Positions 33,786-64,000 of a stretch of 64,000 bases of DNA are shown here, piece after piece; the first letter of the stretch is position 1; each line of letters opens with the position of its first letter. The DNA comes from Candidatus Multivorans sp. GTDB lineage: Bacteria; Acidobacteriota; Thermoanaerobaculia; Multivoradales; Multivoraceae. Where the stretch lies: positions 1,024,001 through 1,088,000 of the forward strand of contig OZ245033.1 of assembly GCA_965224025.1 (NCBI GenBank), in the 5' to 3' direction. The notes under the pieces were generated by a model. It ran no database searches. It was given only the letters and a program-made list of their open reading frames with translations, and was not told the origin of the DNA. The translations under genes were made by a program, and so were the position numbers.

Positions 33786-33915
33786 GAGAGAAGTCACTGA
33801 AGGGTTCCGGCTGAACTGCGCCCTCGAAACGAACACCCTATCGCTGCTCCCTTCCGGGCCTGACGAAGTTCGGGGCCGGTCGACACACAGGGCCCGAACC
33901 CTTCGGTCACCTCTC
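33786..33915 (-). ncRNA. ffs: Signal recognition particle RNA
   Basis: Minus strand contains GTCAGGCCCGGAAGGGAGCAGC domain IV motif within a long hairpin, upstream of dnaX; ends approximate. Confidence 0.9.
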
Positions 33916-33977
33916 GATCCCTCGCCCGTGCGTGGAGACGAGGATCATGCCGGATGGTAGCAGCACGCAGTGACTCG

Positions 33978-34128
33978 CAGGGCTGTTCCAAAGTCCGGCG
34001 CTTAGCGCCGGATGCGGGCGAGACGCCCGCGTTCCCAGGCTCGGAGAGCCATCGCGGCGCCGATCCATCGATCCGGGAGTCGTTTCCGCACGTCCGGCTT
34101 CGGAACGGCCGACTCTTGAACAGCCCTG
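33978..34128. mobile_element. 151-bp MITE-like element with 10-bp target duplication, containing REP copy 4 (34010-34039)
   Basis: Ends CAGGGCTGTTC / GAACAGCCCTG; CAGTGACTCG directly repeated at 33968-33977 and 34129-34138. Confidence 0.85.
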
Positions 34129-34186
34129 CAGTGACTCGTCTACGGCGTGCGAGGCGGAAGCGGGTGCTGCTACGGTTGCTCGCCGA

Positions 34187-34660
34187 GTGGACGCGGGGGA
34201 CGATCGAACGGCCATGGGGTTGGCTCTCGACGAGGCCCGTCTCGCGGCTGCCGCCGGAGAGGTTCCGGTGGGCGCGGTGGTTGTGCGCGACGGGGAGGTG
34301 GTCGGTCGCGGGCACAACCACAGGGAGTCCTGGGGCGACCCGATGGCGCATGCCGAGATGATCGCGCTGGCTCAGGCCGCCGCCCGCCAGCAGGGCTGGC
34401 GACTGGAGGGCTGCGCGGTGTACGTGACTCTCGAGCCCTGCGCCATGTGCGCCGGGGCGATGGTCAACGCCCGCGTGGACCGGCTCGTGTTCGGGGCGCG
34501 GGATCCGAAGGGAGGCTATTGCGGCTCGATCGGGAACCTCGTCCGTGAACCGAGACTGAATCACCAAATCACGGTATGCTCCGGCGTCCTGGCGGAGGAG
34601 AGCTCGGCATTGTTGCGCGCGTTCTTCCGGCGTCTACGGTCGAGCGGGCTTTTCGATTGA
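34187..34660 (+). CDS. tadA: tRNA adenosine(34) deaminase
   Basis: GEVPVGAV, AHAEM, TLEPCAMCAGA. Confidence 0.95.
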   Translation: MDAGDDRTAMGLALDEARLAAAAGEVPVGAVVVRDGEVVGRGHNHRESWGDPMAHAEMIALAQAAARQQGWRLEGCAVYVTLEPCAMCAGAMVNARVDRLVFGARDPKGGYCGSIGNLVREPRLNHQITVCSGVLAEESSALLRAFFRRLRSSGLFD

Positions 34661-34661
34661 G

Positions 34662-34751
<90 letters not shown>

Positions 34752-34797
34752 TTCCGGGGTAGGAGAGGACGAGACGCGCCGAGTGGCCGACGAACGA

Positions 34798-34887
34798 GGA
34801 GAGGTGCCAGAGTGGTCGAATGGGGCGGTCTCGAAAACCGTTGACCGCGCGAGCGGTCCGTGGGTTCGAATCCCACCCTCTCCGCCA
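34798..34887 (+). tRNA. tRNA-Ser(CGA)
   Basis: Cloverleaf with CT-CGA-AA loop, long variable arm, CCA end. Confidence 0.96.
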
Positions 34888-51387: not shown

Positions 51388-53991
51388 TCAGAACGAAACG
51401 GTGACCGTCATCGAGACCGACCGCGGCGGTCCGAGCCAGGCCGCGTTCTCGGTGATGGCGGCGAGATAGGCCTCGTCGAGCACGTTGTTCGCCACCAGGG
51501 AGAACTCCGTCTGCCGGAGCAAGTCGCTCAACGCCTCGCCCGAGAAGCTGATGTAGGCGTCCACCAGCCAATAGGCCTCGGTCGACCAGTCGGACGCCAG
51601 GCTGACGCGCCGCGGCGCCGTGTACTTGGCGCTGACCCCCGCGCTGAGAGGACCGGACCGGTCTAGCGAAACGACCCATAGACGGTCCGGCACGCCGGTG
51701 ACGTCGGCCCCCGCGACGATGTTCTGGCTCGCGTCGACGAGTGGATCTCCGCTGCCGATGTACTCCGAGTCGTTGAGCGTGTAGGCGGTGTAGAGCGACA
51801 TCTGGTGCGGCAGCGGCACCGTGGCGGCGAGTTCGATGCCGGTGGTCTCGATACCGCCCGCGTTGAAGTAGGCGCCGCCCCCCGGGATCAGGTAGTTGGG
51901 ACCGGCCGACGTCTGCGGACCGAGGTAGAAGATTCGGTTCTCGAAGTCGATCGTGTACCAGGTGGCGCTCAGGGCGATCCGTTCCCCCGAATACTGCATG
52001 CCGAGATCGATGTTCGAAGCGGACTCCGGCTCGAGCGCGTCGAGACTGCGTCCGGGCACCTCGAGCAGGTTGGCGCTGATCGCCTTGAAGTTCTCGGCGT
52101 AACCGACAAACAGGTCCAGGCCCTCGACCGGCGTCTCGTAGGTGACGCCGCCCGAGAGGAGGGCGCTCGAATCGGAATCGACCGTCAAGTCCGGGTCGAC
52201 ATGGAACAGGTCCTCGCGCGACACGTCGATCAGGTACTGCTTGACGCCCCCGCTCAAGGTAAACCGTCCGGCATAGATCGTCTCCTCCACGTACCACTTC
52301 AGGACATCCTGCGGGAAGTCCCACTCGTACTGGTGCCAGTAGGGATTCTCGTTCCACCGGAAGCTGATCGTTGGATCGAGGATTTGGTGCCAGTCCCGGC
52401 CAAGATCCCGCCGCGAGTCCTCGTACCAGATGCCGGCCCGGAGCTTGCTGCCGGCGGCGCCGAACGTGGTAAGCCACTCCTCGTCGAGCGTGACGCCGAG
52501 GCGGTCCTTTCCGTAGTGACTGTGGCGGTACGACTGCACCGCGGTGGCGCCCGGATGGCAAGCCGGATCGACCTCCGGGCCACCGGCGCCGTAGTAGTTG
52601 AAGATGAAGGAGGACGTGCAGCCGGGCGTCGGTCCGACGGCGCCTCCGTTCCGGCCCACGAAGCGGATCAGCCCGCGCTGGGCGCCGCCTCGCACCGGCG
52701 CCCCGCCCATCAGCTCGGATTCGGGTCCACCGTTGTCGTCGGTGAGATCGACGATGTAGGGGGGCAGCCAGTCGCCGCGGCCCCGGTGTCGATGGAAATA
52801 GGCGCCCAGTCTCAGCGCCAGCGCGTCGCTGAGCTTCCAGTCCGCCTTCAGGTAGCCGAACGTGTTGTTCCGCCGGGTCTGCCAGCCGGGCCGATAGAAC
52901 TGGTTGAGGTACGGCACTCCCGGCCAGTCGCCGGTCAACCGATCCCACCGCGGATTGGCCAGGAAGTCGCCCTCGCTGTAGAGCCGCTGGTAGACGTCTT
53001 CGTGGATGCTGTCGTACGAGAAGTAGCCGGTGAGATTCAGAGGCCCGTGCGACGAGATCAGCTTGGCGGCCACGTGCTCGCGCTCGTTCTGTGCCGAACC
53101 CTCCACCCAGTCGGTCGCTTCCTGGCGCACAATGGCGACCCAGGCGCGGGTCTGACCGCCGAACAGAGGCCCGGTGTCAGCCCGCATGAAGAAGCGTTGG
53201 CCGCCGTACTCACCCATCGTGGTCGAGGCGGTATAGGTCCGCTCCGCCGCCGGATCGTCGGTCTGGTAGTCGAACGTGCCGCCCAGCGCCTCGACCGAGC
53301 GCGAGGCGATGTCGGCCGTCCCCTGGGACACTTCGACTCCGCCGAGGTTCATCGGATCGATGAACCGGTTTGCCTTGGCGCCGCTCCAGTAGTCCGACGT
53401 GCCGTTCGGGAAGCCGTCGATCGTGGTGCCGATCTGCGCCTCGTTGATGGTCACTTGAAAGCCGCGCATGGCGACGTTGGCCGACCAGTCGTCGAAGCCG
53501 TACGAGTCCCCCTCCTGGACGGAGACTCCCGGCAGGTTGTCCACCACTGAGGTGATGTTCGTGATGTTCGACTGTTGCCGCATCATCGGTTGGGAGACGA
53601 TGTTCCTCGCGAAGGTCCGGGGCTCCTCGGCCACGACCGTGACCGTTTCGAGTAGCCTCGCGACCTGCAGAACGATCCGGACGTTCTCGGTGGCGCCCGT
53701 TGCAACGGAAACCGAAGTCTCCGTCGTCTCGAAGCCCGGCAGAAACGCCGTGACGAGATAGTCGCCGGCCGGCAGACCGGCGCTGGCGTAGGAACCGTCG
53801 GCGTCGGTCACGCGTTCCTGGCGCACGCCTGGGCCGGCCACCGTCACCATTACGCCGGGCAGGGGACTGCCGTTCGCGTCGACGACGACGCCTTCGATTG
53901 TTCCTGTTATCTGGACCGCGGCCGTTGTGGTGGCCGACAGCAGCACGGCGGCGATGGCGAGTCGTCCTCGCCAGAGGCATGGGGCATCCAT
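51388..53991 (-). CDS. TonB-dependent receptor with N-terminal carboxypeptidase-regulatory-like domain
   Basis: Signal peptide, TGTIEGVVVD..PLPGV, ETVTV TonB-box-like, plug NLPGV..MRG, NNVLDEAY..PRS, terminal F; GGAGGT RBS. Confidence 0.92.
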   Translation of the reverse strand: MDAPCLWRGRLAIAAVLLSATTTAAVQITGTIEGVVVDANGSPLPGVMVTVAGPGVRQERVTDADGSYASAGLPAGDYLVTAFLPGFETTETSVSVATGATENVRIVLQVARLLETVTVVAEEPRTFARNIVSQPMMRQQSNITNITSVVDNLPGVSVQEGDSYGFDDWSANVAMRGFQVTINEAQIGTTIDGFPNGTSDYWSGAKANRFIDPMNLGGVEVSQGTADIASRSVEALGGTFDYQTDDPAAERTYTASTTMGEYGGQRFFMRADTGPLFGGQTRAWVAIVRQEATDWVEGSAQNEREHVAAKLISSHGPLNLTGYFSYDSIHEDVYQRLYSEGDFLANPRWDRLTGDWPGVPYLNQFYRPGWQTRRNNTFGYLKADWKLSDALALRLGAYFHRHRGRGDWLPPYIVDLTDDNGGPESELMGGAPVRGGAQRGLIRFVGRNGGAVGPTPGCTSSFIFNYYGAGGPEVDPACHPGATAVQSYRHSHYGKDRLGVTLDEEWLTTFGAAGSKLRAGIWYEDSRRDLGRDWHQILDPTISFRWNENPYWHQYEWDFPQDVLKWYVEETIYAGRFTLSGGVKQYLIDVSREDLFHVDPDLTVDSDSSALLSGGVTYETPVEGLDLFVGYAENFKAISANLLEVPGRSLDALEPESASNIDLGMQYSGERIALSATWYTIDFENRIFYLGPQTSAGPNYLIPGGGAYFNAGGIETTGIELAATVPLPHQMSLYTAYTLNDSEYIGSGDPLVDASQNIVAGADVTGVPDRLWVVSLDRSGPLSAGVSAKYTAPRRVSLASDWSTEAYWLVDAYISFSGEALSDLLRQTEFSLVANNVLDEAYLAAITENAAWLGPPRSVSMTVTVSF

Positions 53992-54051
53992 TGGGGCAGC
54001 ACCTCCCGAGAAGAAAAGAACCCGATCAGGGGTGAAGGACTGGCCGAAATT

Positions 54052-54399
54052 TGGTGGAGGCGGTGGGAATCGAACCCACGTCCGCGAGACTCGGCGCGAG
54101 GGATCTACGTGCGTAGCCTTCACTCGATTGGTCGCTGCCGGCTTGGGTAGAAGGCCACCACGGCCGGCGGTCTAGCTCCGAAGTGATCCGGTCTGAGTTC
54201 GGAGCAGCGCTCAGACGTTCGATCCACTTTGAGTGTCGCTCCTGACGGCGCCGTGAATCAAGGCTCCGGCAGGACCGTGGAGGTTTCTAAGCCGCCAGTG
54301 CCAATTCGTCGTTGGCGAGTATCAAGAAACCGGTTTACGAGTCGGACTCGGCACGCAACCCCCGAACCGCATGATCTCCCGTCGAAGCCATGCGCCCCC
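54052..54399 (-). ncRNA. ssrA: tmRNA copy 1
   Basis: 5' GGGGGCGCATGGCTTCGAC, tag ANDELALAA* (54287-54316), 3' GGTTCGATTCCCACCGCCTCCACCA. Confidence 0.96.
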
Positions 54400-54410
54400 A
54401 GGGACCGTGG

Positions 54411-54416
54411 ATTCTA
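54411..54416 (-). promoter_or_regulatory. -10 box of ssrA copy 1
   Basis: TAGAAT 11 nt upstream of the mature 5' end; identical position in copy 2. Confidence 0.6.
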
Positions 54417-54524
54417 CACCAGACGGCTGCGCCCTGTTGGCAGAGGGCAACGGTTGCCAGCGAGCCGGCTGCCACTGCCGCCAGGACGCCTCGCCAGCGC
54501 CGGGTAGGCAATGCCGAAATCGCG

Positions 54525-57269
54525 CTAGAAGGTCATCCCGAGCTTCAGCCGGAACTCACGCGGAACGAGGTAGCCGCCGGCACTCGAACTCGGCCTTCCG
54601 TTGGCGAGATTCACCGACACCTGATCCTGCTCGTCGGTCACGTTCGCCACCTCGAAGCCGACTTTCCCCGCGAAGGCACCGCGAATCGGAAAGTCCCAGG
54701 CAGCGGCGACCGCCAGCGTCATCGTGTCGGGGAGCTTCTGCGCATCGCGGGGCTCGACGTAGGCCCAGGTGTTGATCCGGGCGCCCGACACGGGATGCAG
54801 CACGGCCGTGCTCGGGCGTAGCCCCCACCGCCGGCCCGCCTGTGCATTGACGATGGCACTCGCGACCACACTCTGATTGCCGATGTCCCAGCGCTTGACC
54901 CCAATGACGTGGGCTACGTACTCGCGATCGGTGTTCAGCCGGCCGTCGAGATTGCGGGCGGTGGGGTTGAGAACCCCAGTCCCAAGCTGGACTCCGCCGA
55001 GGCCCTCGAACTCGTTGCCCTGAGCGTTGAGATCATCTTCGTTGCCCTCGAGCTTGCCGACCGTCAAGTCGGTGCGCAGCGACCAACCCCCGCGGAAGTA
55101 GCGGTTGGCCGCCAGCATCAGCCCCCGGTACTCGCGGAACAGCTCGGGTCGGTTGACGATCTGTCTGAAGATCTGGCCGTCCGCGTCATATTGGTCGTTC
55201 GCCTGGTAGAGGTCTTTCGACTCGTTCCACATCAGCCGAGAGGTGAACACCCAGTTGGGGGCGAACTGCCAGTCCACACCCATCGAGACCTCGTCCTTGA
55301 ACCAGGGCTCGACTGACTGGATCTCGTTGTCGTTGGCCGCGATGAAGCTCCGTTGGAAGATGTCGTATCTCTGGGTTGCCGGGTTCCATCCGAACTGGTC
55401 GAAGGTATTCAGGCCGTTGGTGCCGCGGGTGAAGTGACGGAAGGCGAGGTCCAGCGGGAAGATCCGAACGGCGCGCCCGGCGGTCCCCCGAACCAGGAGC
55501 TTGCCGTCGGCGTTGACGTCGTAAACCGCCGAGAACCGCGGCGCGGGCTCCCGGTAGTCGTTGACCTGCTCGCCGATGTTGTTGGTTACGGTCTGATCGT
55601 CGAGGCGGAGCCCCGCGGTGACCACCCAGTGATCTCCGATGCTGATGCGGTCCTGGGCGTGGATCGCACGCATCGGGCTCTCGTATCTCGAAATGCCGTC
55701 TCCCCCCGGCGACACGTAGACCCGCTTGTTCACGGGTGTCGTGAAGCCGCTCGGCGAATTCAGGTCGTAGCCGCGACCGCGGTAGTCGGTGACGAGGTCG
55801 GCTTTCGCGTTGTAGAACATCGTGTGCTCATCGATCCCGAAGCGCCACTCGTGGTTGCCCTTGAAGAGTGACGCCGCGAGGTTGATCTGCTCGCGAGGAA
55901 AGTCGTTGAAGCCATCGCCGTTGGCCGCCGCGTTACCGTTGTATCGAACCCTGTCGTTGAGGTCCTGGTAGCGGAAGTTGGTGGCGAGCGGGCTATCCGG
56001 CGGAGCGTTGGGGTCGATTTCCCGACGATGCGTAACCCCGCGCGTCAGTTTGTCCGTGCTGTCCGCGACCTTCACCTCGAGGAAGAGGCTCCGGGTGGCG
56101 CTGAAGTTCCAGGCGGCGCTGGCGAGCTTGCTGTCGATCTCTGTCACTGAGAGGGAGTAGATATCCCCGCTGTTTCCCGCGCCCTCGTAGTCGCTCGGTG
56201 CCGTGAGGCCGGTGAACGAGAAATGATGCCGGTCTCCAGCCTGAACGTTGAACTTGCCGACGACCGGCTCGCCCCTCTGGGCAGTCTCGACAACGAAACC
56301 AGTGTTGGTCTGACTGTAGTAGCCGTCGAAGCTCTCACCGGTGGCGACGAAGAACCACGCCCTGTCGCGCCAGATGGGGCCTCCGAGTGAGGCCTCCCAG
56401 GAGTTGAGCTGCTTGTCCGGGCGAGGAAGGTCCGGAGCGACTTGGGAGACAGCGCGCCAGGTGGGGTTCTGACCGACGAAGAGCGCATCGCCGTGAAAGT
56501 CGTTCGTGCCCGACTTGATGACGGTATTGACGATCCCACTGGTGGAGCGGCCGTACTCGGCGCCGTTTCCTGCGACCTGCACGCTGATCGCGGCGGTGGA
56601 GGTGGTCGGCAGGTTGAAGCGGAACTCACCGCCGCGCCGGGTCTGGCTGATGTCGACGCCCTCGATGAACGAGCCCACTTCGTAGGTCAGGCCCCCTGGC
56701 GTGGCCATGAAGCTGCTGTCGTTGGCGGTGTTGCGTGAAGTGACCCCGGGAAGCTGATGCACAGCCGACCCGTACGCGCGACTGGAGAACGCCACTTCCT
56801 CGGTGACCTCAGAGCTCAACGTCGCCGTCAAAGTGGTCTCGAACTTGCTGATCAAGGGCGCCTCGGCGGTCACCGTGATCGCCTCGGCGGTCTCGGAGCG
56901 CAGCTCGAGGTCGATGCCGCGGCGCTCTCCGACCTGCAACTGCGTCGCTACTCTGGCCTGGCCCAGGCCCTCGAGTTCGCCGTGAACCTCGTAGGCGTCC
57001 GGCGGTAGAACGGCGAAGCGGTAGTTCCCGTCGGCATCGGTGATTGCCGTCTTGGTTCCCTGAGGGCCGGTCAGGGTCACCGTGACGCCGGGCAGGGCCC
57101 CACCCTGAGCGTCGAGAGCGCGGCCCTCGATCGTCCCAGTCTGCGGCCCGTCGGCCGACAGGGACATGGGAGCGCAGAGAACGAGGGTTGTGGCGAGAAG
57201 AAGGCGCGGTCGACTAAGTGTTTTCGTGAGCTCAGCTCCCCCAGGGTTTGGGCCGCTACGAACGGCCAA
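54525..57269 (-). CDS. TonB-dependent receptor (Oar-like) with N-terminal carboxypeptidase-regulatory-like domain
   Basis: QTGTIEG..ALPGVTV, EAITVTAEAPL, AEYGRSTSG..IKSGTNDFHG, LGGPIWRDRAWFF, PREFRLKLGMTF. Confidence 0.92.
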   Translation of the reverse strand: MAVRSGPNPGGAELTKTLSRPRLLLATTLVLCAPMSLSADGPQTGTIEGRALDAQGGALPGVTVTLTGPQGTKTAITDADGNYRFAVLPPDAYEVHGELEGLGQARVATQLQVGERRGIDLELRSETAEAITVTAEAPLISKFETTLTATLSSEVTEEVAFSSRAYGSAVHQLPGVTSRNTANDSSFMATPGGLTYEVGSFIEGVDISQTRRGGEFRFNLPTTSTAAISVQVAGNGAEYGRSTSGIVNTVIKSGTNDFHGDALFVGQNPTWRAVSQVAPDLPRPDKQLNSWEASLGGPIWRDRAWFFVATGESFDGYYSQTNTGFVVETAQRGEPVVGKFNVQAGDRHHFSFTGLTAPSDYEGAGNSGDIYSLSVTEIDSKLASAAWNFSATRSLFLEVKVADSTDKLTRGVTHRREIDPNAPPDSPLATNFRYQDLNDRVRYNGNAAANGDGFNDFPREQINLAASLFKGNHEWRFGIDEHTMFYNAKADLVTDYRGRGYDLNSPSGFTTPVNKRVYVSPGGDGISRYESPMRAIHAQDRISIGDHWVVTAGLRLDDQTVTNNIGEQVNDYREPAPRFSAVYDVNADGKLLVRGTAGRAVRIFPLDLAFRHFTRGTNGLNTFDQFGWNPATQRYDIFQRSFIAANDNEIQSVEPWFKDEVSMGVDWQFAPNWVFTSRLMWNESKDLYQANDQYDADGQIFRQIVNRPELFREYRGLMLAANRYFRGGWSLRTDLTVGKLEGNEDDLNAQGNEFEGLGGVQLGTGVLNPTARNLDGRLNTDREYVAHVIGVKRWDIGNQSVVASAIVNAQAGRRWGLRPSTAVLHPVSGARINTWAYVEPRDAQKLPDTMTLAVAAAWDFPIRGAFAGKVGFEVANVTDEQDQVSVNLANGRPSSSAGGYLVPREFRLKLGMTF

Positions 57270-57482
57270 TGTTCACACAGCGTTCAATACGTTCCACTGT
57301 AGTACGGGAGGGGGCTGGGCTGTCAACCCGAGAAGTCAGAACGGCGCCCGAGAAGTGGCGCCTCGGGCGAGTTGGTGTCTTGCGACGTCCACGTCGCTCC
57401 CGGCCTCGGCACTGCCATGGGCTCGCTCTACAACTCCAGGATCACCGGTATGATGCGTATCACCGGGGCCGAGGAGGGGGGA

Positions 57483-57830
57483 TGGTGGAGGCGGTGGGAA
57501 TCGAACCCACGTCCGCGAGACTCGGCGCGAGGGACCTACGTGCGTAGCCTTCACTCGATCAGTCGCCGCCGGCTTGGGTAGAAGGCCACCACGGCCAGCG
57601 GTCTAGCCCCGAAGTGATCCGGCCTGAGTTCAGAGCCGCGCTCAGGCGTTCGGTCCACTTTGAGTGTCGCTCCTGACGGCGCCGCGAATCAAGGCTCCGG
57701 CAGGACCGTGACGGCTTCTAAGCCGCCAGTGCCAATTCGTCGTTGGCGAGTGTCAAAATTCCGGTTTACGAGTCGGACTCGGCACGCAACCCCCGAACCG
57801 CATGATCTCCCGTCGAAGCCATGCGCCCCC
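57483..57830 (-). ncRNA. ssrA: tmRNA copy 2
   Basis: Same ends, same length (348 nt) and same tag ANDELALAA* (57718-57747) as copy 1, with scattered substitutions. Confidence 0.96.
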
Positions 57831-57841
57831 AGGGACCGGGG

Positions 57842-57847
57842 ATTCTA
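57842..57847 (-). promoter_or_regulatory. -10 box of ssrA copy 2
   Basis: TAGAAT 11 nt upstream of the mature 5' end. Confidence 0.6.
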
Positions 57848-57891
57848 CACCAGTCTCGGCGTTGCTCGGGGGTTGCGCGTCGGTGACACCC

Positions 57892-58068
57892 GCCTGACCC
57901 GGGGTTGAAGGAGGGGGTCCCAGGGGACGCTCGCGCTTTCGTGGTGAGTGGAAGATCGGCGCTCGCTTGGGTCGCCTGCGCTCCGGGAAGTCGTCGGTTC
58001 AGGGAAGGTCGTCAGCAGTAGCTTGGCTCCAGCCCCCTAGGACCCCCTCCTTCAACCCCGGGCCAGGC
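57892..58068. repeat. ~170-bp structured repeat family, copy B
   Basis: 35-bp terminal IR with two mismatches (57892-57926 / 58034-58068); homologous to 38408-38577. Confidence 0.82.
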
Positions 58069-58472
58069 TGGACGTCGCCGGGCAGCGGGATACGCCCGCC
58101 TCCATCAGTGAGAGCCACGATCGCGGCCAGTGGATCTGTCGGGTCACGCAGAGATGAGGAGTGCCCCCAAACGCCACCCCGGCCCTTGTTTGAGAGGCCT
58201 GCCGGTGTTCGTCGCACAGGACTCGGTCCCACGACGAGGCCGGTGTGTTCATTGACGGACATGTGATTCACACTCCGGAAACGAGTAGTCTCGACGAAGC
58301 CCAGCGCGCATGTGGCCCCGCTTGGTTCCTTGGTGTCAAGTGATCGGGCGGCAACTCAACGTGCTCGCCGCCAGAATCTGGGGCATACTCCCCGGCATGG
58401 GAATGCCTCCTACGTTGTTGATCGAGGCTGCGAGCCCTATTCGGCCTGCTGCTCTAGAAAGGTGAAGCTCTA

Positions 58473-59648
58473 GTGCGGACTCACGACGCAGGAGACGTTG
58501 CAACAGCCTTAGGGGGCAAGTTGGCTGCCCGGTCACGACACGTATGCCTTTTCCTAGGCGCTGGTGCCAGCAAAGCCTGTGGCTTGCCGGACGTGGAGGA
58601 GTTGGAGGAGACTGTGCTGGACAGCCTTGCAGCTCCGGATGAGACCGTGCTGCGGAGGCTGCTAGAGGGCCGAACTCTCGAGCAGGTTCTAAGTCGCCTC
58701 CGCCGAATTGCGGGACTCGTCTCCGGTGAAGCTGCGGTTGATGGTCTAAGAGCAAAGGACGCTGAGAATCTAGATAACGCGGTGTGCCGGGCGATTGTGG
58801 ACGCGCTGAGTGTGGATAGCGCTTCACCCACTGCAGCCCACTATCTTGCTGTCTGGGCGGCGCGAGCAAACTACCGCGTTCCTGTGGAGCTCTTTACGGT
58901 GAACTACGATCTGCTCCTTGAGAGTGCGTTGGAGCATGTGGGGGCACCCTACTTCGATGGGTTCGTCGGGGCGCTTGAGGCTCGGTTCCATACCGAGTTA
59001 GTGGAGGCAACAGAGGGCAGGGATGACGAGACGGTGCCTCGGTTCTTTGTTCGGCTTTGGAAGCTGCACGGCTCTGTCAACTGGGTTCGAAGGGAGGAAG
59101 GAGGGATCGTTAGACTTGGACAGGTCGCCCCTAACACGCGACCGGCGGCGATCTATCCGTCGGATACAAAGTACGAGGAGTCTCGACGTGTCCCGTTCCT
59201 TGTCCTTCAGGACCAGTTCAGGAGGGCCCTTCATCGGCCGGAAACACTTGTGTTGATTAGCGGCTATTCCTTTGGGGACGAACACCTTAACGAGCACATT
59301 TACGGCGCGGCGACACGCCGAGCTCGGTCGGAGTTCATCGTGTTCTGCTTTGACGAGATTCCCGAGCCCCTAGCGGATCGCGCCATGTTGACGCCGAACC
59401 TCCAAGTCTTAGCCGCCCAAGAGGCGATTATCGGTGGCGTCAGGGGGAATTGGCAGGAACCGAAAACTCCTGTGACGGATGTCTGGCGCGATGATGCCTT
59501 CACGCTCGTCGACTTCAACGAACTCGCGAGACACTTGGCGCGCAGCACGGCCCCACAGTACGAAGACGGACGGGCCTTGGAGGAGTTGCTAGAGCGGCTC
59601 GGCGTCGGTGGCGGATCTGCGGTTGAGGGCGGAGAGAAGGGTGGTTGA
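58473..59648 (+). CDS. SIR2-family protein (anti-phage NADase type)
   Basis: FLGAGAS..GLP, FTVNYDLLLE, KLHGSVNW, GYSFGDEHLN. Confidence 0.92.
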   Translation: MRTHDAGDVATALGGKLAARSRHVCLFLGAGASKACGLPDVEELEETVLDSLAAPDETVLRRLLEGRTLEQVLSRLRRIAGLVSGEAAVDGLRAKDAENLDNAVCRAIVDALSVDSASPTAAHYLAVWAARANYRVPVELFTVNYDLLLESALEHVGAPYFDGFVGALEARFHTELVEATEGRDDETVPRFFVRLWKLHGSVNWVRREEGGIVRLGQVAPNTRPAAIYPSDTKYEESRRVPFLVLQDQFRRALHRPETLVLISGYSFGDEHLNEHIYGAATRRARSEFIVFCFDEIPEPLADRAMLTPNLQVLAAQEAIIGGVRGNWQEPKTPVTDVWRDDAFTLVDFNELARHLARSTAPQYEDGRALEELLERLGVGGGSAVEGGEKGG

Positions 59649-61403
59649 GCAGGATCCGACACGAATCGGGCAAGTCCTTCGGGTACGGGGCGCTGCCGTC
59701 ACGGTCGCGCTCGATCCCGACTTGGCCGGCACCTCGCCGATCTTCCGAGGGCGCCTTCACGCTGTAGGACAGATCGGATCGTTAGTTCGAGTTCCGCAGG
59801 GAGCTGTGGATCTCGTTGCCACCGTGGTCTTCGTCGGTATCACTGAAGGACAGAGCGACGTTGCGCCGACATCGGCACTCCAGCCGGAGGAACGGTACCT
59901 GCAGGTACAGTTACTCGGACAGATTGATCGCGGAACAGGGACGTTTCAGCGTGGTGTGGGGTCGTATCCTGGACTTGACGATCCAGTGCACTTCGCAACT
60001 CCCGAAGAACTGAAGGCGGTCTTTCCTGGCCCCGGGGATGAGAACCTACCTCTAGGACGTCTCGCTGCGGCTGAGGAGACTCCCGTGTGCGTGGAGGCAA
60101 AGAGCTTTGTTGTCCGTCACGCGGCGGTCGTTGGGTCGACGGGCTCGGGCAAGACCAGCGCCGTTGCGGCCACGCTCCAAGGCTTCGTCAAGGGAGGTTG
60201 GGATGCTGCGAACATCGTTGTGGTGGACCCACACGGCGAGTACTCCCGAGCCATGGACGGGTACGCGTCGGTCAGGAGCGTCCTAGGAAGTGGCGCAAAC
60301 CGCCTGCGTGTTCCGTTTTGGGCGATGGCGGCGAACGATATTGTCCGCGTCTTTTGTGGGTCTTGGGCGAGGGGACGTTCTACAAACGTTTCGTCGAACT
60401 CGTTACGCAGCACCGGCGGGAGTTCGTTAGGGCCGCCAACTGGCTTTCATTGGAGCCCTCGGCGGTTACAGCCGATACACCAGTGCCGTTCGATATTCGA
60501 GAAGTGTGGTATCAGCTTGATGCTGAGAACAACATGACTCTGAAAGAAAAGGGCAACCCAGACACCGTGTGTAAGAAGAGCGAAGGCAACGCTTCAGAAC
60601 TGCATCCCGCGACCTTTACACCCTACGGTGCTGGCGGTAGGTCGCCCCACCAGGGCCCGTACTACGGAGTCCATGGCACCTTACCGAACCAACTGCGGCT
60701 CGGCCTGCTGGACCCTCAACTGCGGGCCTTTCTGTCGCCGGAGGGTGAGACGGACGGTACAGACCCGATGATCGAGGTCGTGCAGAGTTGGCTCGGCGAT
60801 GAACGCCCAGTATCTGTGCTCGACTTTAGCGGAGTGCCAGCGATTGCGGCGGACCTTGCGATAGGCGTCGTACTGAACTTGATCTTTGAGATCTCTCTCC
60901 GTTGCGACTTCGGCGGGCCTGGCATCGGGCGGCCCTGTCCCGTCTTGATAGTCCTTGAGGAAGCGCATCGCTACCTTGGAAGCGAGGCCGGCGCTCTGAC
61001 ACGTCAATCCGTGAACAGGATTGCTCGGGAGGGTCGAAAGTACGGCGTCGGCATCATGCTTGTCTCGCAACGTCCGACGGAGCTCCCAAGTACTGCGCTG
61101 GCGCAATGCGGAACGTTGGTTGCACTCAGGCTTTCGAACTCGGGGGACCAGGGGGCGATTCGAGCGGCTCTGCCTGACGAGATTGGGGGCTTGGCTGCCG
61201 CCCTGCCTTCACTGCGTACGGGGGAGGCGATTGTGAGCGGGGAGTCCATGGTATTGCCGGCTCGCATTCTTTTTGATATGCCTGAGCCTAGGCCGAAGGC
61301 AGATGATCCAAGCCTAGAGGCTTGGCGCGGCAAGCCTGCGGTCCCGGACGTTGCGCCAGCTTTGATGGCTTGGCGTGGAACACATGAGGTTGCAGATGAT
61401 TGA
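59641..61403 (+). CDS. herA: HerA-family ATPase/helicase with a frameshift near 60358 (possibly a sequencing error)
   Basis: N-terminal barrel (GQIGSLV), GSTGSGKT, DPHGEY; second frame LEEAH, RIAREGRKYG, SQRPTEL. Confidence 0.9.
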
Positions 61404-62006: not shown

Positions 62007-64000
62007 TTATGGCCCACCGGTCCGCGGGCGCGTGGACTTTCCGCCATGCACCGTCGGCTCGGCGCACCACTGCCTGCGGAGCAGGTCGAGGGGTTCCATC
62101 GCGTCATCGGGCAGTCCGAGGAGATCCACGAGCACAGCGCGGTCAAGTGCCTGACGGGTTTCGTCGCGGTAGGCCTCGTTGGCGGGGAGAAACTCCCGGT
62201 CGCAGAAGTCGGCGAAGAGGTGTACGGAGGCGGCGTGTTGGGCGTCGGTCAGGCGGCGCGGGTCGAGGACGGGGAGGTCCGGGAGCGTCGAGAGGGTGAG
62301 GATGGCGCGGCCCTGTTGCTGGCGGGCGCCGAGCCACCAGAAGGACATTAGGCCGAGCGTGGTGTTGGACCAGAGGACGACAGGCGTTTCCCAGCGCTCG
62401 TCGTGGAGCTTGAAGTTAGGCCAGGCTCGGCCGCCGAGCGTCTTTCCGGGCGTCAGGCAGGCGGCGAGCGGCTGGGAGTTGAGACGGAAGTCCAGGTTGA
62501 AGTGCAGCTTAGTGGCGTGGCGGCGCCATGCTCTCACCGCACGCTCGCCGCAGTCGGGGCGTGGTTCCGCCCGGCAGTCCGGCTGCACGGTCAAGCGGCT
62601 TTCCCGTGATGCGTCGTGGCCCCACAGCGTCGGGTACGTGGGTACTGCCCCGTGGATGGTCGGGAGGATGTCGAATGGACCCCTGGGCGGCGTGCGTTCA
62701 GGATCGCCGTTGATGTCTCGGTGGAGTAATCCCCGACTGCCGATCTCGGAGAGCGGGACCACCGGGACCATAGCTTCCTCGTTCCGCCGGGGGAGCTTCA
62801 GCCGTCCCTTCGGCAAGGCCAGCATGGTCTGGGCGAGCCCGGCTTCCAGGATGCCCCAGGCGCCCCCGTTCTGAAGCTCCGTGCGGACGAAGACGCCGGC
62901 TTCATCTGCGTCCGTCAGAGGGATTCGTCCGGTCGATAGCATCGTTCGCTTGGCGGCGACCTCGTCGATGCGACGAGCGACGGAGACCGCTTCGAGGATC
63001 GAGCGCGGCCGTTGCCTGAGGTTCGTGAACAGTGTGTCGGACCTCCCGCTGCCGGTCTTTCTGGCCACGACGAGGACTTCTGCCATGCCTGTGTCGGCAG
63101 AGAAAGCGCGTCCCGACTGACCCGTATCGGCTATGGAGACGACCGTGAGTCCTTGGTAGCGGCCCGCGAACAGGTCGCGAGCGTTCCGCCAAGAACCGCC
63201 CTGCACGAAGGCTGCCGGCAGGACGAATGCCGCGACCCCGCCGGGCCGCAGCTTGGCGTGTGCCAGATCAACGAAGTTGGATGCCAAGCCTGCGTTGCCG
63301 TGGCCGGCTGGTTCGGCGAGCGCCCTCCTGTACTCGGCGAGCCGCCTTGACATCACCGCCTGTTCGCTCCTGCTCGTCGCGAAGCCCGCGAACGAGGGCA
63401 CGGGCACGGTCGTGCTCTCGTGGTTCGTCGGCCTGGTGAAAGGAGGGTTCATGATGACCAGGTCGAAGCCGCGGTCCGGCGCATCGACGTCGCGAAGCTG
63501 CTCCCGATCCCCGCCGGCGCCGCGGACCTGGGCCGCTCCCGTGCCGAACAACGGCAGCACGGGGTCGGACGACAGCAAGTCGAGTGAGCCGATGGCATGG
63601 GCTCGACCGCTGCCTTCGGGTTGTGCACCGTAGGGCATGGTGTAGATGCGGGTGTCATCGAAGGTCGCGTTGGGATGCACGCTCGACACGATGGACGCGG
63701 TGAGGTGCGTTGCCGCAGGCATGATGTCGGCGCCGAGCAGGACGCGCTCCATCATCGCGGCGTGCAGGGCCCGGTCGTCCCCGCCGGCGCGGCGATGCCG
63801 TGCGGCGACGCGATGGTAGGCGGCGGACAGCAGAGCACCGGTCCCGCAGGCGAAGTCGGCGATCCGCAGGCGGAGCACGTCGTCGGCGCTTGCCCAGTCG
63901 ACCTCGAGACGGTCGACCGCCAGTTCGGCTAGCAAAGTGGCGCTCGAGGGGAGGGTGTAAAAGGTGGCGAGGAACTTTCGGTCGGCGATCAGCCGCTGGA
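62007..64000 (-). CDS. N6-adenine DNA methyltransferase, probably a fused type IIG-like restriction-modification protein (5' end outside window)
   Basis: FYT (motif X), DFACGTG (motif I), IMNPPF (motif IV), long C-terminal recognition region; frame open to window end. Confidence 0.88.
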   Translation of the reverse strand, partial: QRLIADRKFLATFYTLPSSATLLAELAVDRLEVDWASADDVLRLRIADFACGTGALLSAAYHRVAARHRRAGGDDRALHAAMMERVLLGADIMPAATHLTASIVSSVHPNATFDDTRIYTMPYGAQPEGSGRAHAIGSLDLLSSDPVLPLFGTGAAQVRGAGGDREQLRDVDAPDRGFDLVIMNPPFTRPTNHESTTVPVPSFAGFATSRSEQAVMSRRLAEYRRALAEPAGHGNAGLASNFVDLAHAKLRPGGVAAFVLPAAFVQGGSWRNARDLFAGRYQGLTVVSIADTGQSGRAFSADTGMAEVLVVARKTGSGRSDTLFTNLRQRPRSILEAVSVARRIDEVAAKRTMLSTGRIPLTDADEAGVFVRTELQNGGAWGILEAGLAQTMLALPKGRLKLPRRNEEAMVPVVPLSEIGSRGLLHRDINGDPERTPPRGPFDILPTIHGAVPTYPTLWGHDASRESRLTVQPDCRAEPRPDCGERAVRAWRRHATKLHFNLDFRLNSQPLAACLTPGKTLGGRAWPNFKLHDERWETPVVLWSNTTLGLMSFWWLGARQQQGRAILTLSTLPDLPVLDPRRLTDAQHAASVHLFADFCDREFLPANEAYRDETRQALDRAVLVDLLGLPDDAMEPLDLLRRQWCAEPTVHGGKSTRPRTGGP

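Follow-up and report, generated by a model that had tools for sequence, protein, structure and literature searches.

Two complete tmRNA genes in tandem around a receptor gene in an uncultured marine acidobacterium: possible traces of insertion by homologous recombination on ssrA

The transfer-messenger RNA (tmRNA) gene ssrA is usually seen as a single-copy gene at which islands with their own integrase insert. How, then, did one bacterial chromosome come to carry two complete ssrA genes in tandem, with a gene for a receptor-like outer-membrane protein between them? The locus lies on contig OZ245033.1 (assembly GCA_965224025.1), in a stretch of 64,000 nt which will be referred to as the window and whose positions are used as coordinates throughout. 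The genome (5.14 Mb on three contigs, estimated contamination 5.66%) is that of an uncultured marine acidobacterium, and its genus is marine or sponge-associated. The duplication itself is genuine, and it may have arisen by homologous recombination on ssrA.

Both genes lie on the minus strand, the downstream copy A at 54052..54399 and the upstream copy B at 57483..57830, with ~3.1 kb of unique sequence between them. The original prediction, namely two complete ssrA genes of 348 nt that lie 3431 bp apart and encode the tag ANDELALAA, was upheld by ARAGORN and by the Rfam model RF00023 (cut-off 47 bits), which scored copy A at 134.2 bits and copy B at 132.3 bits and was matched by both over model positions 1-374. 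In the cmscan alignment, each copy starts with GGGGGCG, ends with CGCCUCCACCA and has an intact T-arm. The tRNA-Ala-like ends are present in both copies, comprising paired 5′ and 3′ ends, a G-U at the third acceptor position and the CCA, and the ARAGORN tag frame of both runs through the degron ending in ALAA to a stop codon. No other tmRNA gene was found in the 5.14-Mb genome, which has one smpB gene.

The two copies differ at 19 of 348 positions. As had been proposed from the first reading of the letters, these differences are scattered and include a paired change that preserves a helix, position pair 185/208 being U-A in copy A and C-G in copy B. The copies are alike from ~25 bp upstream of the gene, a segment containing TAGAAT, to the exact CCA end, and they are identical from −8 to +70 and over 52 nt at the 3′ end, with positions 1-70 and 297-348 the same in both. 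The upstream segment lies at 57831..57855 before copy B and, with one mismatch, at 54400..54424 before copy A (both minus strand), and it is kept upstream of ssrA in nearly all of 20 congeners compared. Most simply, it is a core promoter, with a presumed promoter function. A promoter scan found a consensus promoter for neither copy, and terminator-like sites in the scan were no commoner than in shuffled sequence. Because the segment is conserved genus-wide, it tells nothing about the boundary of the duplication. The original claim of a shared upstream segment with TAGAAT held, over ~25 bp. In sum, the whole tmRNA gene is genuinely duplicated head to tail, over 373 bp from the −25 core promoter to the CCA end.

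The genes and spacers around the two copies were compared with ~19 kb around ssrA taken from 37 of 41 congeners, the other four having a fragmented or partial ssrA; species genomes are cited by G-numbers, and loci or metagenome contigs by L-numbers. Downstream of copy A lies the native TonB-dependent receptor gene TBDR_A (51388..53991, minus), whose product matches the Pfam families CarboxypepD_reg, Plug (E 6.6e-11) and TonB_dep_Rec_b-barrel (E 8.3e-25) and accordingly falls under the definition of such receptors, with a plug at the N-terminus and then a barrel of 22 strands. The listed open reading frame (ORF), 51388-54123, runs into ssrA, and the likely start is the ATG at 53991. Coverage of TBDR_A reaches 90% or more in 25 of 37 congeners, in most of which the gene stands immediately after ssrA. 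The bracketed cargo, TBDR_B (54525..57269, minus, ORF from TTG 57269), encodes a receptor-like outer-membrane protein with a carboxypeptidase-regulatory domain; it matches OMP_b-brl_4 (7.8e-17), TonB_dep_Rec_b-barrel (1.3e-10) and CarboxypepD_reg, with no Plug match at E <= 0.001. That the two receptors are clearly different proteins was confirmed, since they are alike only N-terminally, with 33% identity over the ~160 aa of the carboxypeptidase-regulatory domain.

Spacer 1, from copy B to TBDR_B (57270..57482, minus), carries a promoter-like site TTGACA...TACTAC at ~57300-57330 and is common to G010, G024, G045, G046 and the four TBDR_B-bearing metagenome contigs L086-L089. Spacer 2, from TBDR_B to the core promoter of copy A (54425..54524, minus), is colinear in G052, and its first 31 bp also occur in G010, where a 389-bp deletion comes next. 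A repeat or miniature inverted-repeat transposable element at the junctions was considered and ruled out, spacers 1-3 being unique in the genome. Upstream of copy B lies the native 5′ flank of ssrA (57856..58090, minus): blastn matches reach ~58084-58090 in 6 of 37 congeners, and the ~260 bp upstream of copy B are shared with G001, G004, G042, G048, G049 and G050. This flank also contains a 35-nt inverted repeat (57892-58068, minus; arms 94% matching), of which partial copies (29-73 nt) occur at four other genome sites and which may be a small repeat element. Copy B therefore stands in the native 5′ context of ssrA, and copy A, followed by TBDR_A, in the native 3′ context. With the native 5′ flank at one copy and the native 3′ flank at the other, the unit of ssrA and TBDR_B looks like an insertion into ssrA.

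The same arrangement is known from Campbell-type insertion, in which the insert comes to lie between two complete homology copies, with the native 5′ flank at one and the native 3′ flank at the other, and in which pop-out restores the single copy. Such insertions are usually those of laboratory suicide plasmids, or involve insertion sequences or rRNA repeats, whereas a natural use of ssrA as the sole homology is a proposal made here. Comparison of the sequences gives what we regard as about an even chance that the locus arose by a recombinase-free insertion through homologous recombination on ssrA and that one redundant copy decays afterwards. The 3431-bp unit of ssrA and TBDR_B would have entered the chromosome by RecA-type recombination on the conserved ssrA, either by a single crossover with a circular molecule or, from a linear fragment, by an ends-in event. 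If a molecule bearing ssrA and TBDR_B underwent one crossover with the chromosomal ssrA, exactly the flank arrangement seen here would result, and identical runs such as those from −8 to +70 and over 52 nt are long enough for homologous recombination. The second tmRNA gene being redundant, one copy would then be truncated or deleted, a different one in different lineages, while recombination between the copies would remove the whole unit and yield the common layout of ssrA followed by TBDR_A. The tandem would be a short-lived stage, at which the studied genome still has both copies complete. Both the recombination mechanism and the order of events are what we infer.

If the duplication were to be an error, its source would be a long-read metagenome assembly that fused the ssrA neighbourhoods of two strains. 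The congeners are metagenome-assembled genomes, so the studied genome may be one as well, and the contamination estimate given above also speaks for such a fusion. Moreover, the best public run, X1, holds the exact form together with a form that differs by ~2%, and no contig spans the stretch. Against this stand the 19 differing sites and the 3.1 kb of unique sequence between the copies, as well as G052, a separate species genome that is colinear across the locus. Each junction of the studied locus also occurs in an independent genome, and remains of a second copy are found at opposite positions in two lineages, which makes an artefact very unlikely; we consider a fusion of strains extremely improbable.

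How common the tandem is was seen from a scan for tmRNA of 42 species genomes of the genus, the studied genome counted among them. A tmRNA above the cut-off was detected in 39 of 42, the three without one being fragmented assemblies, and none of the 41 congeners has two full copies; only the studied genome does. In an even draw of 150 further genomes from the order, counting in G168 (unpublished, with a single gene), 143 gave a tmRNA match and one, G083, had two full genes, not in tandem. These two genes of G083, a member of another family, score ~167 bits each and lie on the small contigs C56 and C316 of a 470-contig assembly; the pair may represent either a further case or contamination.

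The region beside ssrA varies considerably among the 37 congeners. In 16 of them, ssrA is followed by TBDR_A (G003, G004, G005, G007, G008, G009, G014, G015, G017, G021, G023, G042, G044, G048, G053, G054), and in two by an internally deleted TBDR_A (G019, G050). Neither receptor is found in eight (G001, G002, G011, G013, G022, G047, G051, G057), and one (G045) has only spacer 1, the spacer that follows copy B in the studied genome. A near-full TBDR_B is present in seven congeners (G006, G010, G020, G049, G052, G055, G056) and fragments of it in three (G016, G024, G046). The expectation that relatives would differ in tmRNA copy number and in the genes between the copies was accordingly borne out for the layout, but not for two full copies or for more than one cargo.

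Unmistakable remains of a second ssrA copy occur in two lineages. G052, the nearest relative (TBDR_A 96.2% and TBDR_B 97.2% identical, 93-97% across the locus), has the same order of upstream flank, ssrA stub, TBDR_B, spacer 2, ssrA and TBDR_A. Its upstream copy consists of the first 208 nt of the gene, a 5′ stub (nhmmer E 1e-71) that scores 34.7 bits, below the cut-off, and lies 3.2 kb upstream of the full gene; the 255-bp deletion that made it corresponds to 57367-57621. In G010, ssrA and TBDR_B are followed by the 31 bp of spacer 2, then by a 3′ piece of ssrA that is 56 nt long and has two mismatches, and finally by TBDR_A, and the same 56-nt stub was found in all four metagenome contigs bearing TBDR_B (L086-L089). 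G006 and G020 represent a third layout: the native upstream sequence stops at −26 and is followed by TBDR_B, the core promoter, a single ssrA and TBDR_A. Here, the stop codon of TBDR_B lies 8-35 nt before the core promoter segment of their only ssrA, which suggests that the 25-bp segment may be enough for transcription of ssrA.

TBDR_B itself is intact in some genomes and damaged in others. The start codon at 57225-57227 is ACG in the studied genome, ATG in seven relatives and CTG in G056; the 900-codon frame of the studied genome is intact, with an in-frame TTG 14 codons upstream of the ACG. G052, G049, G055, G010 and G006 have kept both the 900-codon frame and the ATG start. The gene is damaged in G056 (CTG start and two stops) and in G020 (frameshift), and only pieces remain in G016, G024 and G046, so it is decaying in five of the ten congeners that have the gene or a remnant of it.

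Has TBDR_B moved between species, or has it been inherited along with its neighbours? By their flanking genes, the studied genome, G052, G056, G049 and G055, plus G048, G054 and G016, form a group I, and G010, G006, G020 and others a group II. Between the groups, synonymous divergence (dS) of the studied genome from G010 is 0.14 for TBDR_B, compared with 0.39 for the penicillin-amidase gene and 0.54 for TBDR_A, and the between-group values overall are 0.14-0.24 for TBDR_B versus 0.35-0.54 for the flanks. Within group II, G010 and G006 differ by 0.27, 0.20 and 0.24 for TBDR_B, amidase and TBDR_A, respectively. As the three genes agree within group II, TBDR_B is not simply slow. We set aside the dS values of the segment labelled 'down' (wrong strand, with nonsynonymous above synonymous divergence) and those of the amidase and TBDR_A of G055 (inflated, probably by frame errors). 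In maximum-likelihood trees, the inter-group branch measures 0.015 for TBDR_B and 0.206 for TBDR_A, ~14 times shorter in TBDR_B, and G056 takes conflicting, well-supported positions inside group I in the two trees. TBDR_B thus shows a transfer signal, which points to crossings between the species groups that always ended beside ssrA.

An old segmental duplication in the ancestor of the genus, inherited vertically and followed by lineage-specific loss, with TBDR_B merely evolving slowly, would do without such transfer. It agrees with the stubs and alternative positions in both species groups and with the split between groups I and II, which is recovered in the TBDR_B tree with a support of 88/92. 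It conflicts with the divergence of TBDR_B, which is not slow in group II (0.27 versus 0.20-0.24) and yet shallow between the groups, with the much shorter inter-group branch and with the highly supported conflict in the placement of G056. In addition, copy A, copy B and the stub of G052 carry different, foreign-looking alleles. We therefore judge a purely vertical origin to be quite unlikely.

The absence of an integrase, as claimed in the original prediction, was confirmed: the nearest match to the tyrosine recombinase family PF00589 lies at least 199 kb from the locus, and the serine recombinase families PF00239 and PF07508 have no match anywhere in the genome. A Pfam scan of the ORFs from the penicillin-amidase gene to the DUF2332 gene revealed no recombinase; these ORFs comprise a DUF6338-like ORF, a 971-aa ORF, a SIR2-like gene with HerA-like ORFs, and the two receptors. 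Similarly, a tblastn search with the 12 tyrosine-recombinase domains of the genome, although of limited sensitivity, found nothing at the 37 congener loci, on the four metagenome contigs or in the genome's own 36 kb.

These results bear on the possibility that the locus is the relic of an integrase island at the 3′ end of ssrA, whose integrase was lost or acted in trans and whose full second copy was formed by later recombination between differently arranged chromosomes. The order of ssrA, TBDR_B and a 56-nt 3′ repeat in G010 and in all four metagenome contigs is what would be expected of such a relic, and the transfer signal of TBDR_B fits as well. Islands at ssrA with repeats of this kind, some of them without an integrase, are documented in the accessible parts of two papers (PMC3146451, PMC4383910). 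Nevertheless, a tyrosine or serine recombinase was found near none of the 42 loci examined, nor near the studied one, and the 56-nt repeat with its two mismatches fits the remnant of a deletion equally well. The shared 31 bp of spacer 2 are informative in this respect: one 389-bp deletion turns the studied layout into that of G010, whereas the reverse needs the precise insertion of 94 bp, a promoter and exactly the missing 292 nt. The 5′ stub of G052 also shows that a complete upstream and downstream pair once existed. A classical island accounts for the G010 layout, but not for the complete second gene of the studied genome. On balance, descent from an integrase island appears unlikely, but it retains an appreciable chance.

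Several observations weigh against an origin by homologous recombination on ssrA. The public runs, which consist of contigs that break at repeats, show no circle, excision junction or spanning read. An integrase would leave the same G010-type layout of ssrA, cargo and 56-nt 3′ repeat. The close relatives G049, G055 and G056 have ssrA, TBDR_B and TBDR_A in this order with no traceable second ssrA copy. Both receptor trees separate the two groups in the same way, so that transfer of TBDR_B rests on branch lengths, dS and one conflict within group I. Furthermore, copy B is 96.5% identical to the G010 allele, while its nearest alleles (G044, 98.6%; G050, 98.0%) come from genomes that lack TBDR_B. 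As copy B is not G010-like, copy B and TBDR_B were not simply imported together from a G010-like donor, and a later replacement of the allele has to be assumed. Finally, copy A looks like a mosaic, which is not what a single crossover would give. Of 12 diagnostic sites, three (72, 77 and 271) resemble the clade of the nearest relatives, and the nine that lie from 92 to 169 resemble the general type; even counting only 72 and 271 as clade-like, an additional gene-conversion step is needed, although the sites are few. The apparent mosaic hints at gene conversion of copy A from copy B, based on two or three sites.

The ssrA alleles themselves do not track flanking genes or species. The seven nearest relatives form a separate ssrA clade (support 98/94) with genes of 344-345 nt, and the tag ANDNLALAA occurs in G016, G048, G049, G052, G054, G055 and G056 (loci L052, L064, L065, L068 and L070-L072). 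The other 30 congeners examined have ANDELALAA, as do both copies of the studied genome. Copy A, copy B and the stub of G052 all fall outside the ANDNLALAA clade. The flanks of G044 and G050, which have the alleles nearest to copy B, are only ~83-88% identical to those of the studied genome; the allele nearest to the stub of G052 is that of G023 (98.6%), and the intact copy of G052 lies inside the clade of the nearest relatives. Before its upstream copy was truncated, G052 would have had two tmRNAs with different tags, ANDELALAA and ANDNLALAA. In outline, the proposed role of ssrA as a homology anchor is thus supported: the region beside ssrA varies, TBDR_B has moved and ssrA alleles do not follow their flanks. 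The idea that different cargoes are exchanged at this site found no support, as the cargo, whether between two ssrA copies or next to one, is TBDR_B every time, often in decay.

Are both tmRNA genes still functional? For structure prediction, 39 full-length sequences of the genus, from the 37 congeners plus copies A and B, were folded to a consensus of 103 pairs. Copy B keeps 103 of 103 pairs and is, by its predicted fold, fully canonical. In copy A, changes at positions 116 and 119 break two of seven pairs in the stop-codon hairpin (C-U and C-A), and a change at 208 that is found only in copy A converts a G-U pair to A-U. The minimum free energies are −147.2 kcal/mol for copy A and −157.9 kcal/mol for copy B, and the terminal branch of copy A in the ssrA tree is ~4 times the median. 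Copy A is probably still functional but drifting, in an early phase of relaxed constraint. The original assumption that both RNAs are under selection therefore agrees with the 103 pairs of copy B, but less so with the broken hairpin and longer branch of copy A and with the truncation or loss of one copy in relatives.

That selection maintains both genes, for dosage or for specialisation, so that the tandem is adaptive, has to be weighed against these data. The tRNA-like ends, the acceptor G-U pair, the tag frame and the core promoter are kept in both copies, the change at 208 in copy A turns a G-U pair into an A-U pair, and only two of 103 pairs are broken. On the other hand, none of the 41 congeners keeps two full copies and the sister genome G052 has truncated one; the two tags are the same, which rules out tag specialisation, and smpB is single. 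Taken with the changes at 116 and 119 and the long branch of copy A, these findings make an adaptive tandem decidedly improbable.

Both copies are presumably transcribed. Metatranscriptome contigs of X17 are ~97% like copy B, and contigs of X19 are nearer to copy A and include 216 nt of TBDR_B with two differences; both sets derive from other samples and do not represent expression of the studied genome. In run X1, the sole contig over 54254-54284 has the general, B-type letters at sites 146, 120, 119 and 116, and it is either copy A of a variant strain with an intact hairpin or a misplaced copy B contig. The middle of copy B is uncovered in this run.

A more general reading of insertion by homologous recombination would be that a recombinase-free cassette uses ssrA as its portable homology arm, with two working tmRNA genes for a time after entry. 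An ssrA-flanked cargo might then enter any related genome, and later one copy would decay or the unit would pop out. We put this forward tentatively, as somewhat less likely than not.

A relative of the cargo is found outside the genus. L082 (1027-7456), from another genus of the Thermoanaerobaculia, contains a homologue of TBDR_B with 87% DNA identity. On one side it has an NHL-repeat protein, and on the other a pyrroloquinoline quinone (PQQ)-dependent dehydrogenase with a TetR regulator. This homologue has no tmRNA gene within 4 kb, and its setting may be the original functional context of TBDR_B.

The sequence upstream of the tandem has features of its own. Directly upstream of ssrA, at 58473-61403 (plus), a SIR2-like gene (PF13289, E 4.6e-12) precedes HerA-like sequence, whose DUF87 part (59608-60537) and HerA_C part (60087-61403) belong to separate ORFs that overlap and differ in frame. 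With a G+C content of 0.58-0.63, this stretch lies below its surroundings; it is common to G052 and G056 and absent from most congeners, and it looks like a SIR2-HerA defence pair, possibly frameshifted. At 62007-64000 and on to C1:1088922 (minus), the 971-aa ORF shows a weak similarity to Eco57I-type methylases, with 21.8 bits versus a Pfam cut-off of 25.3 bits, and the DUF6338-like ORF comes next after it; both lie between the penicillin-amidase gene and ssrA, in an upstream stretch that varies between congeners. Elsewhere in the window, the region 33801-34887 contains the signal recognition particle RNA gene (33801-33899, minus) and two tRNA-Ser genes (GGA and CGA) 136 nt apart, an ordinary set.

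Islands integrated at tmRNA genes are reportedly treated by Williams (2003) in 'Traffic at the tmRNA gene'. As in the tmRNA-gene islands collected by Islander and TIGER, foreign cargo comes immediately after the 3′ end of ssrA, with a direct ssrA repeat as its boundary, and relatives of the G010 type have a full gene and a displaced 3′ fragment. Here, in contrast, the whole gene is repeated, core promoter included, the cargo is a single gene and no integrase was found in the island, its neighbourhood or the relatives; of the features used by Islander, the studied genome has no recombinase in the island and, in place of the displaced 3′ fragment, a complete gene.

According to the accessible part of the source, the ssrA islands of Dehalococcoides have a 20-bp repeat and a serine recombinase (PMC3146451). 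They resemble the present locus in that a strain-variable accessory region lies downstream of a single-copy ssrA and in that some units lack a recombinase and are termed 'cis-mobilizable' (PMC3146451), and they differ in that the studied genome has no serine recombinase match and has a 373-bp repeat of the whole gene. Some mycobacteria, as described in the portion available of the respective paper, likewise have more than one full tmRNA gene in a genome, the extra genes having different tags and being derived from phages or Tsukamurella by horizontal transfer (PMC9569102). The copies studied here form a tandem, have identical tags and belong to the type native to the genus, whereas a tandem is not mentioned in that portion of the paper. 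In the tmRNA Website survey, again as far as the accessible text goes, duplicate calls are pseudogenes or island fragments (PMC4131195). Like the second copies of G052 and G010, those pseudogenes lack one gene end; they are broken and were rejected, whereas both copies here are complete and have similar scores. Our full-text searches gave no paper on two or second tmRNA or ssrA genes, broader searches found no description of complete ssrA genes standing in tandem on either side of a cargo gene, and no duplicate-related terms were found in a tmRNA database paper of 2025.

The locus and its relatives appear to catch several stages: an intact tandem, one copy reduced to a 5′ or a 3′ stub, one or the other copy cleanly lost, and the cargo lost. 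The practical weight of the finding is modest, as it concerns one accessory, often decaying receptor gene in an uncultured genus. It would nevertheless represent a route different from that of integrase islands, in which the homology comes from a conserved RNA gene and a recombinase is dispensable. If this is true, such insertions would escape island finders that depend on an integrase plus a 3′ fragment, and duplicate tmRNA calls in metagenome-assembled genomes would not automatically be contamination.

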